DNA from: Dehalococcoidia bacterium
Lineage (GTDB): Bacteria; Chloroflexota; Dehalococcoidia; Lucifugimonadales; JAGWBF01
DNA length: 64,000 nucleotides
Reading direction: 5' to 3'
Assembly (NCBI GenBank): GCA_965197405.1
Contig: OZ240206.1
Location: forward strand, 1,608,085 to 1,672,084
A program made the position numbers and the translations under genes. Every line of letters begins with the position of its first letter. The stretch's first letter is position 1. The notes beneath the pieces were generated by a model. That model searched no databases. It saw only the letters and a program-made list of their open reading frames with translations, and was not told the DNA's origin. Below are positions 7,681-49,578 of this stretch, in pieces.

Positions 7681-9381
7681 ATGAAAGTCCTGCGCCTATT
7701 GACTCTAGCCCTGGCGCTCCTGCTGGCCGTGGCCTGCGCCGGGGAGAGTCCCACGGCTGTCCCCACTGCCATACCGACGGCCACGCCGCCCGCCACCCCG
7801 GACTTGGAAGCGACGGTGCAAGCTATGGTGTCCGCCGCTCTCCCCACGGCAGCGCCTACCCCCACGCCGGACATTGACGCTACCGTCGAGGCCCGTGTAG
7901 CTGCCACCGTCGCTGCTATGCCAACTCCCACTGATACGCCTATCCCAATACCGACACCTTTAACCACCACGACACCCATGTCCGTCCCAACCGCTACACC
8001 CACGCCGACGTCTATTGCGACGCCGACACCCATTCCGACTATGACACCAACCCCTACGTCTGCCCCAACACCAACCGCTACCCCAGTGTCCACCGCCACA
8101 CCTATCCCTACACCAACTGCGACGCCAACGCCCGCCGCTGCTTTTACCTCTGTCAGTTCCGGACCTCTTCACACATGCGGAGTGAAGACCGACGGCTCCG
8201 TCGCTTGCTGGGGTTTCAATAAGGGCAGGCATGGCAATTTCGCTGGACAAACCACGCCGCCCGCCGGTCCCTTCGCCTCTGTCAGTTCCGGACCTCTTCA
8301 CACATGCGGAGTGAAGACCGACGGCTCCGTCGTTTGCTGGGGCGATAACATATTTGACCAAGTCACATCGCCTGAAGGTCCCTTCACATCCGTCAGTGCT
8401 GGGGCTTATCACACCTGCGGGGTGAAGACCGACGGCTCCGTCCTTTGCTGGGGCTATGATAGTGAGGGTCGGGCCACACCGCCCGCCGGTGCTTTCGCAT
8501 CCGTCAGCGCGGGTCGGTCGCACACCTGCGGGGTGAAGACCGACGGCTCCGTCCTTTGCTGGGGCTATGATAGTGAAGGTCGGGCCACACCGCCCGCCGG
8601 TGCTTTCGCATCCGTCAGCGCGGGTGGGTCGCACGCCTGCGGGGTGAAGACCGACGGCTCCGTCCTTTGCTGGGGCTATGATAGTGAAGGTCAGGCCACA
8701 CCGCCCGCCGGTGCCTTCGCATCCGTCAGCGCGGGTGGGTCGCACACCTGCGGGGTGAAGACCGACGGGTCCGTCGTTTGCTGGGGTTTAAATGAGGACT
8801 TTCGTGGCAATACCGTTGGCCAAGCCACTCCCCCAGACGGTCCTTTCACATCCGTCAGCGCGGGCGGTCTTCACACCTGCGGGGTGAAGACCGACGGGTC
8901 CGTCCTTTGCTGGGGCTATGATAGTGAGGGTCAGGCCACACCGCCCCCCGCCGGTGCCTTCGCATCCGTCAGCGCGGGTAGGTCGCACACCTGCGGGGTG
9001 AAGACCGACGGGTCCGTCCTTTGCTGGGGCTATGATGGTCAAGGTCGGGCCACGCCGCCCGACGGTCCCTTCGCATCCGTCAGCGCGGGTGGGTCGCACA
9101 CCTGCGGGGTGAAGACCGACGGGTCCGTCCTTTGCTGGGGCGCTAACTGGGATGGTCAGGCCGCACCGCCCGCCGGTCTCTTCGCATCCGTCAGCGCGGG
9201 TAGCTCGCACACCTGCGGGGTGAAAACCGACGGCTCCATCGTTTGCTGGGGTTTAAATAAGGACTTTGATTGCAAAATCGTTGACCAAGCCACGCCGCCT
9301 GGCGGAACCGCAGGGACCGGCAGTGCGGGCGCGGCCTATATCCGGGGAGTGAAGACCCCTTGGCTCACTCTATGTCCATGA
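7681..9381 (+). CDS. Secreted/lipoprotein-like protein with Pro/Thr-rich linker and 10-11 RCC1-like (HTCGVKTDGSVLCWG) repeats
   Basis: Signal peptide MKVLRLLTLALALLLAVACAG, about 130 aa of PT-rich low complexity, then blades of 37-43 aa. Ends at TGA 9379-9381. Confidence 0.8.
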   Translation: MKVLRLLTLALALLLAVACAGESPTAVPTAIPTATPPATPDLEATVQAMVSAALPTAAPTPTPDIDATVEARVAATVAAMPTPTDTPIPIPTPLTTTTPMSVPTATPTPTSIATPTPIPTMTPTPTSAPTPTATPVSTATPIPTPTATPTPAAAFTSVSSGPLHTCGVKTDGSVACWGFNKGRHGNFAGQTTPPAGPFASVSSGPLHTCGVKTDGSVVCWGDNIFDQVTSPEGPFTSVSAGAYHTCGVKTDGSVLCWGYDSEGRATPPAGAFASVSAGRSHTCGVKTDGSVLCWGYDSEGRATPPAGAFASVSAGGSHACGVKTDGSVLCWGYDSEGQATPPAGAFASVSAGGSHTCGVKTDGSVVCWGLNEDFRGNTVGQATPPDGPFTSVSAGGLHTCGVKTDGSVLCWGYDSEGQATPPPAGAFASVSAGRSHTCGVKTDGSVLCWGYDGQGRATPPDGPFASVSAGGSHTCGVKTDGSVLCWGANWDGQAAPPAGLFASVSAGSSHTCGVKTDGSIVCWGLNKDFDCKIVDQATPPGGTAGTGSAGAAYIRGVKTPWLTLCP

Positions 9382-16555: not shown

Positions 16556-17122
16556 CTATGGAGCGCCGGAGTTCAACCCCAGGTCTGCCGCCACGGGCTT
16601 CAGGCTCTCGATAATGAAGGTTATGTGCTCGTCCAGGTCCAACCCCAACTCCTCGGCCCCTTTGACGATGTCGTCACGGTTGACGTCCTTGGCAAAGGCC
16701 TTGTCCTTCATCTTCTTGACCACGGACCTGGGGGTTACGTCGTCCAGGCTTTTGCTGGGCCTCACCAGGGTGACTGCCCTTATGAATCCCGAAAGCTCGT
16801 CCACCGCGAATACGGTACGCTCCATCAGGGTCTCTCGCTGGATGCCCGTGTGGTCGCCATGGGTGAGAACGGCCCGGACGATGGACTCCGGGTAGCCCCG
16901 CTCTCTCAATATGTTTGCGCCGTACATGGGGTGCTCCTCCGGGGTGGGGACGGTCTCCCAGTCGAAGTCGTGGAGCAGCCCGGCGATGCCCCACACCTCC
17001 TCGTCCTCCCCGTACTTGCGGGCGTAGGCCCGCATGGCCGCCTCCACCGCCAGGAGGTGCTTCATAAGGGTATCCGTCTTGACGAACTCCTGGAGAATCT
17101 CCAGGGTGCTCTCTCTATCCAT
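16556..17122 (-). CDS. HD/HDIG-domain metal-dependent phosphohydrolase
   Basis: ORF trimmed to ATG 17122 (MDRESTLEIL), overlapping the trmI stop by 8 nt; LLHDFDWE and LTHGDH metal motifs. Confidence 0.75.
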   Translation of the reverse strand: MDRESTLEILQEFVKTDTLMKHLLAVEAAMRAYARKYGEDEEVWGIAGLLHDFDWETVPTPEEHPMYGANILRERGYPESIVRAVLTHGDHTGIQRETLMERTVFAVDELSGFIRAVTLVRPSKSLDDVTPRSVVKKMKDKAFAKDVNRDDIVKGAEELGLDLDEHITFIIESLKPVAADLGLNSGAP

Positions 17123-17966
17123 CCCGTTCCTCCTTTTCCGGCTCCTCGCGGTCTTCTTCAGCACCGGCTTCCGGGGCCGGTCCGCCCTTGGGCATACACC
17201 TCCGGGCCGTGGTAATAAAGCCTGTGTGGGCCACCATCCGGTGGGCGGGCCTTACGCTGCGGTGGGTCACGCTCCAGGGCCGCAGCAGCACCTCCACCGT
17301 CTCGATTAGCTGAAAGCGTGGGTCGGAGGAGAGGGCCTGCGCCATCTGGTGGACCTGGAGCACGGTGGGCAGGAAGCTGAGGAGGATGCCCCCCATGCTG
17401 AGGGCCTGGGCCGCCGAGGGGACGACGTGCCAAGGCTCCGGCACGTCCAGGACTATCCTGTCCACCTCTCTTTCCTCGATGCCCCGGTATACGTCGCCCA
17501 TGACGAGGATGTGATTGGAGGGGTTGGCTGCGAGGATGCGTATGTTGCGCATGGCTGTCTTCACCATGTCCGCCCGTACCTCGTAGGTTGTGACCCTGCC
17601 CGACTCGCCCACGGCCCTCAGCAGCGCGGCCGTCAGCGCCCCGGAGCCCAGCCCCGACTCCACTACAGTAGCGCCGGGGAAGATGTCGGCGAGTATGAGT
17701 ATGTTGCCCAGGTCTTTGGGGTAAATCACCTGGGCACCTCGGGGCATCTCCAGCACGTAGTCGCCCAGCGTAGGCTTGACGGCCAAGAGGCTCTGGCCGC
17801 GGCTGGTGCGGAACCATCCCCCCTGTTCCTGCCCGATTATCTCCTTGTGGGGCAGGGTGCCGACATGGGTGTGAAAGGAGGCCCCTGCGTCGAGCGTGAG
17901 GAGGTATCTGCGCCCCTTGCGGTCTATGAGGAGTGCCAGGTCGCCTTCCTGAAATTCTTTGCCCAT
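17115..17966 (-). CDS. trmI: tRNA (adenine-N1)-methyltransferase TrmI/Gcd14 type
   Basis: YPKDLGNILILADIFPGATVVESGLGSGALTAALL SAM motif, VLDVPEPW, acidic C-terminal tail. Confidence 0.85.
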   Translation of the reverse strand: MGKEFQEGDLALLIDRKGRRYLLTLDAGASFHTHVGTLPHKEIIGQEQGGWFRTSRGQSLLAVKPTLGDYVLEMPRGAQVIYPKDLGNILILADIFPGATVVESGLGSGALTAALLRAVGESGRVTTYEVRADMVKTAMRNIRILAANPSNHILVMGDVYRGIEEREVDRIVLDVPEPWHVVPSAAQALSMGGILLSFLPTVLQVHQMAQALSSDPRFQLIETVEVLLRPWSVTHRSVRPAHRMVAHTGFITTARRCMPKGGPAPEAGAEEDREEPEKEERDG

Positions 17967-18078: not shown

Positions 18079-18543
18079 CTAGCCCAGCTTCTCCACCTCG
18101 GTCAGGATGTCCAGCGGGTTGGGGATGTTGGGCGCTGTGTACTCGTGCCTGTACCGTATGACTCCATCCTTGTCAACGATAACCACGGCGCGGTTGGGTG
18201 CCCCGCGCTCCTCGTTCCAAAGGTCGTAGGACTTGGTCATCTGCCCGTGGGGGTGGAAATCGGACAACAGTGGGTAGGGTATGACACCCAGGCTGGTGGA
18301 ATATGCCCGGTGGGAGAATTGACTGTCACAGCTTATGCCCAGTACCTGGGCACCCTTCTCCTCGAACCGGCCGTTGTGCTGCCGGAACAAGGAGACCTGG
18401 TTGGTTCAACCACCGGTGAAATCGAAGATGTGAAAGGACAGGACCACATATTTCTGCCCCTTGTACTGGCTCAAGCTGACCCGCTCGCCATCCTGAGAGA
18501 GAAGGCTAAAGTCGGGAGCAGCCTGTCCTACTTCTGCCGCCAT
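18079..18543 (-). CDS. Peroxiredoxin (AhpC/TSA-BCP type) with in-frame TGA at the peroxidatic position: candidate selenocysteine peroxiredoxin
   Basis: ATG 18543 behind AAGGAGG; MAAEVGQAAPDFSLLSQDGERVSLSQYKGQKYVVLSFHIFDFTGG-TGA(18408-18406)-TNQVSLFRQ... continues into ORF 18079-18390. The TGA aligns with Cys45 of the neighbouring paralogue (FTGVCTTE). Confidence 0.7.
18358..18394 (-). promoter_or_regulatory. Candidate bacterial SECIS hairpin for the peroxiredoxin UGA
   Basis: Starts 11 nt 3' of UGA: CUCCU-UGUU-CCGGC-[AGCACAACG]-GCCGG-UUCG-AGGAG. Two 5-bp helices around an internal loop; G at apical-loop position 2. Confidence 0.45.
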
Positions 18544-18637
18544 CGTTGCTCCTCCTTATACATAATACATAGGACCTGTAGTCTCGGAAAAATCCTGTTT
18601 CTCAAAGGCATTCACAGATAGCCGGACTGCACCGGGT

Positions 18638-19114
18638 CTACCCCGCCAACTGGCTGAGGGACTGCCTGATTTCGGCGTAGTCAGGCTCGTTGACCGGGCT
18701 TGGGGCCACCCATTTGTAGCGCACCACGCCGTCTTTGTCCACCACAAACACGGCCCGGTTCGCGGCCACATACCCTTCCATTCCCGCCAGGTCGGAGAGG
18801 GCGACGTCGTACTGGTTCACCACCTGTCTGTTGTAGTCGCTCAGAATTGGGAAGTTCAGATTGTTCTGGTCAACCCACGCCTTCTGAGAGAAGGGCGGGT
18901 CTACACTGATGCCCAGGACCTGGGCGTTGAGGGAGTTGAACTGGGATTCCTGGTCCCTCAGAGTGCACATCTCAGTGGTGCAAACGCCGGTAAAGGCCCC
19001 CGGGAAGAAAGCTAGGACCACGTTCTTCCCCTTGAACTCGCTCAGAGCACGCTGTTGCCGGTCATGGTCGTACAGGGTGAAGTCGGGAGCTGGCTGACCT
19101 ACTTCTCCCGCCAT
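18638..19114 (-). CDS. Peroxiredoxin (AhpC/TSA-BCP type), Cys form
   Basis: 158-aa ORF; APDFTL...VVLAFFPGAFTGVCTTEMC active site. Confidence 0.85.
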   Translation of the reverse strand: MAGEVGQPAPDFTLYDHDRQQRALSEFKGKNVVLAFFPGAFTGVCTTEMCTLRDQESQFNSLNAQVLGISVDPPFSQKAWVDQNNLNFPILSDYNRQVVNQYDVALSDLAGMEGYVAANRAVFVVDKDGVVRYKWVAPSPVNEPDYAEIRQSLSQLAG

Positions 19115-19237: not shown

Positions 19238-19395
19238 CAGGGTCTTTCAATTGTCACCCCGAGCGGAGCGAGGGGTCTAAAGTCCTTGCTTTCTTAGGCG
19301 TGCTGCTATCCGAGCATTTTTAGATTCCTCGCTGCGCTCGGAATGACACGCGGCGGGGGCCTGTATTTACCTGGCGTGAGAGTTGAAAGACCCTG
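19238..19395. repeat. MITE family A copy (full length) with 10-bp target duplication
   Basis: CAGGGTCTTTCAATTGTCACC ... GAGAGTTGAAAGACCCTG; flanks CTTTCAGTCC (19228-19237) and CTTTCAATCC (19396-19405). Confidence 0.8.
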
Positions 19396-19428
19396 CTTTC
19401 AATCCCAGGGCCTTTCCATTCTCGACGC

Positions 19429-20218
19429 TCAGACCTTTGCCAAGCACTACAATCGCTGCCGGCAGTTGGACGCACCGGAGTCGTTGCTGCCCCGCAAGCG
19501 AGGCCCCCGGTGGAAGAGTCGTCGCACCCTGCCCTACATAGAGCAGAAGGTGTTGGAGCAGAGACGCAAGGGTATCAATCGCTATGAAATTTATGCCATA
19601 CTTCAGCCAGTCCTTAAAGACCATACTCCCTTGCCTTTCACCATCTATGCCATCACCAAGAGGCACGGACTGAATCGTCTAACACCACCCATGCAACATT
19701 CTAAACGAAAGATAATCAAGAGCCGGTCTGGGGAACCGGGACATCTGGACCGCCACTACCTGAGCCGGGACCTGATAGTGGGTGCCCGGAAGCGGTATTA
19801 CCTGGTGTCCGTGCTGGACGCCTGTACCCGCATAGCCTGGGCAGAGGTGGTGCCTGATCTCAAGAGCATCAACCTGCTGAATGCAGAGTACGGGATACGC
19901 TTCGAAACCATCCTCACGGACAACGGGAAAGAGGTGGCTTTACGAGGTAATGTGTCCCGACATCCCTTTGAGAGGATGCTCAGTGAGCTTGGCATCAAGC
20001 ATCGGTACACCAGACCCTACCGACCCCAGACCAACGGAAAGGTGGAACGGTTCTGGAGAACTCTGGATGAAGACCTGATAGAGGGGACCACCTTTGATTC
20101 CCTTGAGGAGCTGAGGGAGGAGTTAATGCAATGCCTCTACTACAACACTCAAAGGCCCCACCAGGGTCTTAACGGCAAGACTCCCCTCCAAGCCCTGCAA
20201 CTTTTGTCAATGAATTAG
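19429..20218 (+). mobile_element. IS481-family transposase (rve/DDE) remnant, N-terminally truncated and internally shortened
   Basis: ILTDNGKE...YRPQTNGKVERFWRTLDEDL...YNTQRPHQGLNGKTP core motifs. No HTH N-terminus and no IRs of its own. The ORF's first about 25 codons are translated MITE sequence. Confidence 0.65.
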
Positions 20219-21104: not shown

Positions 21105-21130
21105 TACAGGCGTACAGCTAAATACGCTAG

Positions 21131-21235
21131 GCCCGTGGGGGAGCTTGGTTGAGTCAGGCTGAGAGGGCGACCGTTTAATGTCGCCGACCCTTGCGAACCT
21201 GATCTGGGTAATGCCAGCGGAGGGAATGTGGTCCC
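21131..21235 (+). promoter_or_regulatory. TPP (THI-box) riboswitch aptamer
   Basis: GGGGAGC...GCUGAGA...ACCCUUGCGAACCUGAUCUGGGUAAUGCCAGCGGAGGGAA matches the conserved THI-box core; directly upstream of thiC. Confidence 0.9.
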
Positions 21236-21253
21236 AAATGGTAGGAGAAGTCT

Positions 21254-21381: not shown

Positions 21382-23181
<1,800 letters not shown>

Positions 23182-25872: not shown

Positions 25873-25988
25873 TTACTGATACGTGAGTAAGTAAACATCT
25901 AAACCGGTCTCGCCCGCCATTCCTGCGGAAGCAGGGGAGTGACGTTGGGGAAGCACCATGGTTTAGTTATTTGTTCACGCGTCAATAA
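25873..25988. repeat. Repeat family B copy
   Basis: TTACTGATACGTGAGTAAGTAAACATCTAAACC ... central CCTGCGGAAGCAGGGGAGTGACG hairpin ... GGTTTAGTTATTTGTTCACGCGTCAATAA. Confidence 0.65.
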
Positions 25989-26145
25989 AAGCGGAAGCTC
26001 CGCTCCGCCGCGTCATTCTCCGAGGGCGTCTCTGGGGGAGAGACGAGAGCAAACATTTCCTTGTCCCCGGAGCCGCAAACGGGTAGAATGGGAGCGACCC
26101 ACCTATCCCTGACGGGCAAATCTGATACTGATATGGAGGCACGCG

Positions 26146-27309
26146 ATGAAATTCGGGCTAGCATACGAGATGCAGCGTCCTTTCCTCGATGACCACGCCG
26201 TTGTGGAGGAGACTATCGAGCAGTGCGTCCTGGCCGACGAGATGGGCTGGGACTACGTATGGTTCGTCGAACACCACTTCCTCACGGGCTTCTCCATGTC
26301 CCCCTGCCCGGAGGTCATCTTCGGCGCCCTGAGCAGGATTACCAAGAGAATTAGGCTGGGCTTCGGCGTCGTCATCCTGCCCTATCACCACCCCGTCAGG
26401 GTTGCGGAGAGGGTGGCTATGCTGGACCATCTCTCCAAGGGCAGGGTTGACTTCGGCACGGGGCGGTCTGCCGCCTACGAGCAGACGGGCATGGGCATAG
26501 ACCCGAGGGACACCCGTGATATGTGGGACGAGTCCCTCACCATGATTCCGAAGATATGGGAGTCGGACACCTTCGAGTGGGACGGGCGGTTCTGGAAAGT
26601 CCCGCCGAGAAAGGTCCTGCCCAAGCCCTACCAGCAGCCCCATCCCCCCATCTGGGTGGCCGCCCTCCAACCCTCGACCTACGAGATGGCCGCTAAGAAG
26701 GGCATAGGCGTGATGGCGCTGGGGATAAGCGCGCCCTCAATCCTGGAGCCGCATATCAAGGCGTACAGAGAGAACGTGAAGAAGGCGGACCCCGTGGGCC
26801 AGTACGTCACCAACGAATGGCTCAGCGCGACAATGGGGTATTGCGGCGAGGATGCCCAGTCGGCCAAGGCGCTGTGCGAGCAATCCCTCAAGACCTTCTT
26901 CGGTCCGGACAGGCCCTATCTTCAGGACCAGAAGAACGTTTACGAGACCCTCGTCAAGCAGTGGGGAGGCGTTCCCGACCACCTGAGGCAGAACTTCACG
27001 AGGTATATCGAGAAAGACGAGAAGACGGGCGCGGAGGAAGAGGTCGTTGACCTGTCTGGCGGAGGGTCCCTCGTCCATCGCGCCTGGGCGGAGCTTGACG
27101 CCGATACCCTGGTGGACCGGGGAGTAATGGTAGCAGGGGACCCGGAGAACTGCATCAGGGCCATCAAGCTGCACGAGGAGACCGGCGTTGACCAACTGCA
27201 ATTCCTGATGGCAACGGAGACAATCCCCCACGAAAAGGTGATGAAGTCCATAGAGATGTTCGGGAAGTACGTAATACCGGAGTTCAAGAAGGCGGAAGCC
27301 AGGGTTTAA
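26146..27309 (+). CDS. LLM-class (luciferase-like) flavin-dependent oxidoreductase
   Basis: MKFGLAYEMQ..., WDYVWFVEHHF, LGFGVVILPYHHP, GRVDFGTGRS. Confidence 0.85.
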   Translation: MKFGLAYEMQRPFLDDHAVVEETIEQCVLADEMGWDYVWFVEHHFLTGFSMSPCPEVIFGALSRITKRIRLGFGVVILPYHHPVRVAERVAMLDHLSKGRVDFGTGRSAAYEQTGMGIDPRDTRDMWDESLTMIPKIWESDTFEWDGRFWKVPPRKVLPKPYQQPHPPIWVAALQPSTYEMAAKKGIGVMALGISAPSILEPHIKAYRENVKKADPVGQYVTNEWLSATMGYCGEDAQSAKALCEQSLKTFFGPDRPYLQDQKNVYETLVKQWGGVPDHLRQNFTRYIEKDEKTGAEEEVVDLSGGGSLVHRAWAELDADTLVDRGVMVAGDPENCIRAIKLHEETGVDQLQFLMATETIPHEKVMKSIEMFGKYVIPEFKKAEARV

Positions 27310-49190: not shown

Positions 49191-49339
49191 GCGGGCGCTT
49201 TGAAAATCAACGTAAAATGGTACTGGATGGCATCGCCACAACCCCATGCCACAGGCTGCGGGGCGGCGCTGCTCGCACAGGAGGCCTGGGTGAAGGGGCA
49301 AAGTATGAGGCCGTGCGCCTCCCTTCGACAAAGACCCTT

Positions 49340-49578
49340 GAGCGTACCCTAGAGGACGACTCCAGCCAGGCGTCCCCCCGGCACCCGAAGGGTTCTGCTT
49401 ACCGTTGCTTCCTTCCGGACCTGGCGGGGTTCACAGACCTCCGTCGCGAGGGACCCAACCTTCGATACCATCCTCTGAGGACAGAGGCGCACAGGCCAAG
49501 CCTCAAAAGAGGCGTTCAACCCCGCTGTAGCGGATTGCGGGTACAGGGCACCGCTAGCTCCCCGTCTAGCACAGCCTC
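49340..49578 (-). ncRNA. ffs: Signal recognition particle RNA, long (Bacillus-type, Alu-domain-containing) form; ends approximate
   Basis: Minus strand contains the domain IV core CCAGGUCCGGAAGGAAGCAACGGUAAG...UUCG...GGUGCCGGGGGGACGCCUGG. It also has a 5' segment UGUGCUAGACGGGGAGCUAGCGGUGCCCUGUACCCGCAAUCCGCUACAGCGGGG closely resembling the B. subtilis scRNA Alu domain as I recall it. Confidence 0.8.

Follow-up and report, generated by a model that had tools for sequence, protein, structure and literature searches.

We analysed a 64-kb stretch of DNA, referred to throughout as the window, from a bacterium of the class Dehalococcoidia (Chloroflexota). On its minus strand lies a peroxiredoxin (Prx) gene with an in-frame UGA codon at the position of the peroxidatic residue, where, in all probability, selenocysteine (Sec) is inserted under the direction of a hairpin of the Sec insertion sequence (SECIS) type. 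This gene, called the Sec gene below, is preceded by a Cys-containing paralogue and followed by a gene for a tRNA methyltransferase. The features of the locus are as follows.

18079-18543, minus strand: predicted Sec peroxiredoxin coding sequence of 154 codons including U46, with the stop codon TAG at 18081-18079 (from the read-through translation and Pfam)
18551-18557, minus strand: ribosome-binding site AAGGAGG, 7 nucleotides (nt) 5' of the ATG at 18543-18541 (from the sequence itself)
18406-18408, minus strand: in-frame UGA, codon 46, at the peroxidatic position in the TxxU motif T43-G-G-U46 (from alignments to Cys45 of the paralogue and to AhpE)
18357-18395, minus strand: SECIS-type bipartite hairpin with an 8-base-pair (bp) lower stem, a 2x2 internal loop, a 5-bp upper stem and a 9-nt apical loop, AGCACAACG
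18335-18353, minus strand: second hairpin, (G)UGCCCAG-GUA-CUGGGCA(U), formed by the codons for G-A-Q-V-L-G-I, approximately 52 nt after the UGA
18638-19114, minus strand: Cys peroxiredoxin paralogue of 158 amino acids (aa) with the sequence FTGVCTTEMC (CxxxxC), PrxQ/BCP-like and lying 94 nt 5' of the Sec gene
17115-17966, minus strand: TrmI/GCD14-type tRNA 1-methyladenosine (m1A) methyltransferase, the downstream neighbour (Pfam labels on public gene calls)

The list of open reading frames (ORFs) for the window held the Sec gene as two pieces in one frame, a 45-aa ORF (18406-18543) and a 103-aa ORF (18079-18390, TTG start). Reading the frame directly from ATG 18543 to the TAG at 18081-18079 revealed a single interruption, the TGA at 18408-18406. 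An in-frame TAA at 18558-18556 precedes ATG 18543, which is therefore the earliest possible start. An earlier reading of this DNA, made from the letters alone and called here the sequence-only reading, had treated the 103-aa ORF as a fragment of a gene that starts at ATG 18543 behind AAGGAGG, and both its coordinates and its 154-aa peptide were confirmed. When the stop was replaced by Cys, the Pfam domain AhpC-TSA (PF00578) matched the read-through product over residues 5-131, across the TGA, with an E value of 1e-37 and a score of 129.3 bits against a curated cut-off of 26. BLASTP alignment of the adjacent peroxiredoxin with the read-through product (40% identity) placed Cys45 of FTGVCTTE opposite the TGA, in agreement with the earlier pairing of codon 46 with this residue.

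Orthologues were sought in one genome per Genome Taxonomy Database (GTDB) species. Relatives were present in at least 598 genomes, and codons were analysed in the 80 best-matching species together with the window. These 80 genomes are almost all metagenome-assembled Dehalococcoidia/Chloroflexota, including SAR202, with one labelled Armatimonadetes, and their proteins share 51-77% identity with that of the window. The codon following F-T-G-G was TGA in 81 of 81 sequences. The comparison of orthologues at this codon that the sequence-only reading had proposed thus gave TGA in 80 species, with no Cys and no decayed upstream half among them. Mean pairwise amino acid identity was 64% over the 36 codons upstream of the TGA, as against 57% over the 99 codons downstream, and 55% of the nucleotide differences in the upstream codons fell at codon position 3. 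Judged by this pattern of substitution, the segment upstream of the TGA is translated, in frame with the remainder, and purifying selection acts on both flanks. T(-3), F(-4), Q(+3) and R(+72), numbered relative to the Sec codon, were invariant in all 81.

Two exceptions, each with a single-base change at the Sec codon, were also seen (L087, 1501-1917, and L088, 104-565; one TGT and one TTA). In entry P0028, the codon is TGT (Cys); judging by its name, the contig has 5x coverage, the C-terminus is frameshifted and the hairpin is retained. Entry P0006 carries TTA (Leu) at the Sec codon on a 696-bp scaffold. These Cys and Leu variants may stem from errors or recent conversion, or may be dead copies, and we regard them as doubtful or recent.

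The minimum-free-energy (MFE) fold of the region following the UGA is the hairpin at 18395-18357, UCUCCUUG-UU-CCGGC-[AGCACAACG]-GCCGG-UU-CGAGGAGA. Ten unpaired nt separate it from the UGA, the stem begins at the 11th nt, and the apical loop starts at 25 nt. A hairpin had been drawn here before at 18394-18358; it was recovered as the MFE structure, although this is longer by one outer U-A pair. The likeness in spacing to the Escherichia coli fdhF element that had been pointed out is a loose one: the 11 nt of fdhF are counted to the minimal upper stem-loop and not to the foot of the complete hairpin, and the apical loop of the window hairpin lies at 25 nt.

The stability of the hairpin was assessed by swapping synonymous codons within the gene, always between sites for one and the same amino acid, and then refolding the region, a procedure that controls for composition. 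The window hairpin had a folding energy of -23.2 kcal/mol compared to -10.4 kcal/mol for the shuffled sequences (z -4.5), and none of 200 shuffles was as stable. For 77 genes of the family, the mean was -17.8 against -9.1 kcal/mol, with a mean z of -3.0 and 66 of the 77 at z < -2. No excess structure was detected in the equivalent region of 10 Cys paralogues (mean -8.6 kcal/mol, z -0.4).

We then aligned 69 distinct sequences, gap-free, over a stretch that begins 6 nt ahead of the TGA and ends 78 nt past it. The hairpin structure was paired in 81% of cells, as compared to 37-49% when the partners were slid by 1-3 columns; 13 pairs changed on both sides, and none of 500 shuffles reached the observed covariation score. 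The lower stem, encoded by the codons V-S-S/L-F and F-E-E-K, was 88-99% paired. Its three variable pairs, all joining one third codon position to another, switch together: 24-54 (CG in 51 sequences, UA in 16), 27-51 (GC in 37, AU in 16, GU in 6) and 21-57 (CG in 58, UA in 4). The upper stem differs between clades in sequence and register, with GC/CG swaps, and retains its pairing. The same architecture was found in 65 of the 69 sequences, with an apical loop of 3-9 nt placed 24-29 nt after the UGA; in the 9-nt loop of the window, a G occupies position 2. The upper stem changes register from clade to clade, which is why the RNAalifold consensus lacked the 18395-18357 hairpin; the hairpin was assessed instead by folding each sequence and counting pairs for the named structure. 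The hairpin is selected and conserved across the family, shows compensatory changes and is stabler than the coding sequence requires, which is how the conservation test suggested in the sequence-only reading turned out. Its best reading, from folding and alignment, is a bacterial SECIS element, with SelB binding predicted.

The second hairpin was paired in 90% of cells, with G-C/A-U/U-A switches across the family. Its energy was -12.0 kcal/mol (z -2.2) in Sec genes and -10.3 kcal/mol (z -1.1) in Cys paralogues. Since the Cys paralogues form it as well, it was rejected as specific evidence for a SECIS element, and it is probably for the most part a by-product of the amino acid motif in a GC-rich genome. 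The MFE fold also pairs UGGUUG with CAACCA (18397-18411, minus strand), which places the UGA within a small stem; the pairs that involve the U and G of the UGA lie in invariant alignment columns and are uninformative either way.

Among solved structures, those nearest by sequence were the entries for the 1-Cys peroxiredoxin AhpE of Mycobacterium tuberculosis (Rv2238c; PDB 1XXU, 1XVW, 4X0X, 5C04), with E values of 2.5e-27 to 5e-26. An AlphaFold (AF2) model of P0003, a family member with 62% identity, had a predicted local distance difference test (pLDDT) score of 93.7 and a predicted template modelling (pTM) score of 0.90. It superposed on AhpE with a template modelling (TM) score of 0.94-0.95 and a root mean square deviation of 1.1-1.5 Å, making AhpE the best structural match by fold as well as by sequence. 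Position 46 lies at the start of the helix 44-55 in this model, where the peroxidatic residue of peroxiredoxins is usually found. The catalytic residues are directly evident: in the alignment, T43 and R118 are the counterparts of AhpE T42 and R116, and both are invariant in 81 of 81 sequences. The two proteins are also alike in length (approximately 153 aa), in the alignment of the peroxidatic residue and in having no conserved resolving Cys. At approximately 36-40% identity, they differ in that AhpE has Cys45, Pro38, Phe37 and Glu48 where the Sec protein has Sec46, Ile39, His38 and Gln49. The residue before the Pro-equivalent position is His in 77 of the 81 sequences, and the top PDB match is an engineered F37H mutant of AhpE that shares this His. 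The Glu three residues past the catalytic position is replaced by Gln in all 81.

A resolving Cys is not conserved in the family (C72 in 48 of 81, and a Cys at +4 in 12 of 81), and a 1-Cys-type mechanism with an external reductant is therefore most likely, as far as sequence comparison can indicate. A sub-clade made up of the 12 sequences with Cys four residues past Sec (L044, L052, L056, L057, L061, L063-L065, L068, L076, L079, L080) reads Q-T-H-[V/I/L]-x-S-F-T-G-G-U-T-[H/R]-Q-C. In this sub-clade, the Cys at +4 could be a resolving Cys that forms a selenenylsulfide.

Public gene calls split the Sec gene into pieces of 45 and 103 aa, which bears out the expectation, voiced before, that standard annotation would truncate it. 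We searched a database of 5.8 billion proteins, and approximately 60 of the best 120 clusters were pieces of 87-111 aa that cover only the C-terminal two-thirds. Full-length entries (approximately 152-186 aa, from contigs of approximately 0.6-1.4 kb) read FTGGWTNQ, with Trp at the Sec position. Entries with Trp at this position are P0002-P0005, P0009, P0011, P0012, P0021, P0054, P0129, P0133, P0138 and P0145. They look like UGA translated under genetic code 4, a choice presumably made by the gene caller. The fragments and the Trp entries are a systematic annotation artefact.

We consider that the gene encodes a SECIS-directed, Sec-containing, AhpE-like peroxiredoxin of the 1-Cys type, 154 aa in length, and would put the probability of this, as judged from comparative sequence evidence, at roughly nine in ten. 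The conserved TGA, the purifying selection and the hairpin all support the Sec peroxiredoxin proposed in the sequence-only reading.

Several observations weigh against this interpretation. The Pro of the PxxxTxxC motif is absent, with I39 in its place in the window and V in 39, I in 41 and L in 1 of the 81 sequences. The switches in the lower stem are all from GC to AU at third codon positions, a pattern to which drift in genome composition could add; the codon-shuffle test and the transversion swaps in the upper stem are free of this weakness. By MFE folding, just 28 of 69 members have a G in the first two positions of the apical loop. Four loci (L053, L055, L074, L079) keep the TGA, and their hairpin is weak in the usual register (shuffle z approximately 0); a differently placed element may be in use there. 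A scan of the hairpin region against Rfam, taken to an E value of 10, gave noise only, with no fitting family. Finally, selA, selB, selD and tRNA-Sec were not found in the 64-kb window or in approximately 640 kb of flanking sequence from relatives. ARAGORN detected no tRNA gene of any kind in the window and none for Sec in the 60 flanking loci of relatives that were scanned, and Pfam assigned ten ORFs of the size of SelA, SelB or SelD to unrelated families. When E. coli SelA, SelB and SelD served as tblastn queries on the window and on every locus, only GTPase domains were matched, of which the match in L018 was read as EF-Tu because of the adjoining cluster of tRNA genes for Thr-Tyr-Thr.

The absence of Pro could be thought to follow from the presence of Sec. 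This was rejected, as the matches in the representative library include Cys forms that lack Pro (P0132, SFHIYSFTKGCTNQ; P0131; P0130) as well as a UGA form, P0133, that retains it. The loss of Pro and the change from Glu to Gln are, on this comparison of sequences, traits of the clade and not consequences of Sec.

We infer the insertion of Sec and the binding of SelB from the established bacterial Sec pathway. At UGA46, the apical part of the hairpin would be bound by SelB-GTP carrying Sec-tRNA(Sec), and Sec would be inserted in place of termination; the ribosome would unwind the hairpin and read codons 50-63. Peroxidase activity and the steps of catalysis are predicted from peroxiredoxin chemistry and the conserved residues. 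The selenolate of U46, at the N-terminus of helix 2 in T43-x-x-U46, would attack the O-O bond of the peroxide with the assistance of T43 and R118. The resulting selenenic acid would be recycled by an external thiol reductant, which we propose in view of the lack of a resolving Cys common to the family.

The alternative that survives best, itself very improbable, is that UGA46 is recoded in the manner of SECIS and SelB with insertion of Cys or another residue, for example by a tRNA(Sec)-like tRNA with Cys identity, to give a thiol peroxiredoxin. Such tRNA(Sec)-like Cys tRNAs were reportedly described by Mukai et al. in 2016. A conserved TGA and hairpin do not tell which amino acid is inserted, and the genes for Sec synthesis were not seen in the window or in the flanks of relatives. 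A costly recoding of this kind would, however, be hard to maintain across 80 species when a single change of TGA to TGT or TGC gives the same protein. Dehalococcoidia genomes are also documented to be rich in selenoproteins, with the Sec pathway present: BSepDB (2026), a database that covers only species possessing the pathway, counts two metagenome-assembled genomes of this class in its top ten bacteria by number of selenoprotein genes (PMC13326102). In addition, the UGA lies at the site where Sec and Cys classically interchange in Prx selenoproteins (PMC2398784).

We give hardly any credence to a pseudogene or truncated gene, in which a nonsense mutation would have inactivated the peroxiredoxin as standard annotation implies. 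The 45-aa and 103-aa pieces given by public callers would fit this explanation, as would the relative with TTA and the one with TGT and a frameshifted C-terminus. Against this, the TGA is retained at the exact codon in 81 of 81 sequences of 51-77% identity, and purifying selection acts on the two halves, which remain in frame. The stop coincides with the catalytic position, selection is evident on the hairpin, the trmI gene follows in 78 of 81 loci, and the orthologues are devoid of random stops and frameshifts. In practice, this explanation is refuted.

Reassignment of UGA throughout the genome to Trp or Gly (codes 4 or 25) finds as little credence. The full-length database entries that read FTGGWTNQ speak for it, but they derive from the short contigs mentioned above, and a Trp in place of the peroxidatic residue would abolish enzyme function. 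TGA ends 20 of the 55 confident genes of the window, as an ordinary stop would, and TGG codes for Trp 260 times; the genetic code is therefore not reassigned. A screen of the genes of the window revealed no further in-frame TGA in a coding frame. A sequencing or assembly error is for practical purposes excluded. The TGA is one base away from the TGT or TGC that the sequence-only reading had allowed for on re-sequencing, but four independent assemblies of this organism (one from ENA and three from Logan) all carry it, with the gene divided into 45 + 103 aa in each, and the TGA is present in the 80 other species as well. Jointly, we allow these four alternatives a few per cent.

Sec-containing Prx are not new, as the sequence-only reading had noted and the literature shows. 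Prx with a TxxU motif is an established family of bacterial selenoproteins (PMC1088965, PMC2398784, PMC9312934, PMC13188914), catalogued since PrxU (2001), with 43 sequences from the Sargasso Sea, 253 from Global Ocean Sampling (GOS) and 78 organisms in a 2016 survey (PMC1088965, PMC2398784, PMC5029168). A selenoprotein family is defined in the field by the same domain and the same Sec motif (PMC9312934), and on this rule the Sec gene belongs to the Prx TxxU family (pfam00578/COG1225). It shares with that family the Pfam domain, Sec at the TxxU peroxidatic site, Cys homologues and a stem-loop 3' of the UGA. The motif given in review is PxxxTxxU, whereas the window clade has I, V or L in place of Pro in 81 of 81 sequences, and the Glu of C-T-x-E is Gln in as many.

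PrxU of Eubacterium acidaminophilum (NCBIfam NF040737) is an experimentally shown Sec peroxiredoxin, with Sec at the peroxidatic site, but is longer (model length 233) and of a different Prx subtype. The Sec protein of the window scored 74.9 bits with the PrxU model, against a cut-off of 270, and is not a PrxU equivalog. The T-G-G-U-T motif has been reported for AhpC_a selenoproteins of eukaryotic algae (PMC7539508), which have the AhpC/TSA domain and occur in Sec and Cys forms; this likeness is one of motif only, and the algal SECIS lies in the 3' untranslated region, unlike the element of the Dehalococcoidia, which lies within the coding region. With bacterial SECIS elements, as known from E. 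coli fdhF and the bSECISearch consensus, the hairpin shares its place in the coding region after the UGA and the distance of 24-29 nt to the apical loop; the hairpin of the window also shares the G in the second loop position. It differs from known elements in its unrelated sequence and in an unusually long, 8-bp lower stem made up of Ser-Ser and Glu-Glu codons.

The literature search yielded no published description of the clade in Dehalococcoidia or SAR202, or of the Pro-less active site. It is conceivable, though we think it rather unlikely, that the Dehalococcoidia clade with the TGGU motif is a distinct, undescribed Prx subfamily with a rewired active site, H-[I/V]-x-x-F-T-G-G-U-T-x-Q, and lineage-specific recognition by SelB. 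The latter would be indicated by the more than half of the hairpins in the clade that have no canonical G in the apical loop.

General knowledge of selenoproteins is left unchanged by these results, as the enzyme type is already known; they offer a useful correction of annotation and a widespread example confined to one bacterial class. Public protein sets systematically break up what appears to be a core antioxidant gene of the Dehalococcoidia, with matches in at least 598 species genomes, SAR202 included, and the mis-annotation would conceal that this abundant environmental lineage requires selenium and has a defence against peroxide. The Sec codon is retained in all 80 best-matching species genomes, aerobic marine SAR202 among them. 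With this retention in 80 of 80 species, a Pro-less active site and related Cys forms, the clade provides natural material for asking why Sec is kept.

Turning to the neighbourhood, no terminator-like site was present in the 94-nt gap between the Cys paralogue and the Sec gene. The tandem Cys/Sec pair is common only to the nine closest relatives (L008-L015 and L017). Its proposed use as a natural comparison of Sec and Cys enzymes holds insofar as the two genes are adjacent, but the Cys paralogue is PrxQ/BCP-like, of another subtype and only 40% identical, so that the comparison is less like-for-like. On the downstream side, 78 of 81 loci have a TrmI/GCD14 homologue after the Sec gene, and in 33 an HD-domain protein gene follows. 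This synteny with trmI indicates an old, vertically inherited core locus. It extends across the class, and a functional link between the two genes is not obvious. No redox partner genes are encoded near the Sec gene.

A candidate second selenoprotein of the window, seen as a possible read-through at 25903-27309, was rejected; by sequence, it is a luciferase-like oxidoreductase with a non-coding upstream region. The flanks of the 80 loci were screened for other genes with a conserved in-frame TGA, and only off-frame artefacts of GC-rich genes were obtained.

Directly upstream of the peroxiredoxin pair, a 291-aa ORF at 19343-20218 on the plus strand carries an integrase catalytic domain (rve and rve_3, public gene call) and is likely an insertion sequence. 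A thiamine pyrophosphate (TPP) riboswitch at 21127-21242 on the plus strand (63.7 bits, gathering score 54.3) stands ahead of thiC (21385-23181, plus strand) in the standard arrangement. A bacterial large signal recognition particle (SRP) RNA was detected at 49311-49574 on the minus strand (172.8 bits). A 566-aa protein with ten RCC1_2 repeats (Pfam E value 2.7e-90), unrelated to the Sec gene, is encoded at 7681-9381 on the plus strand.

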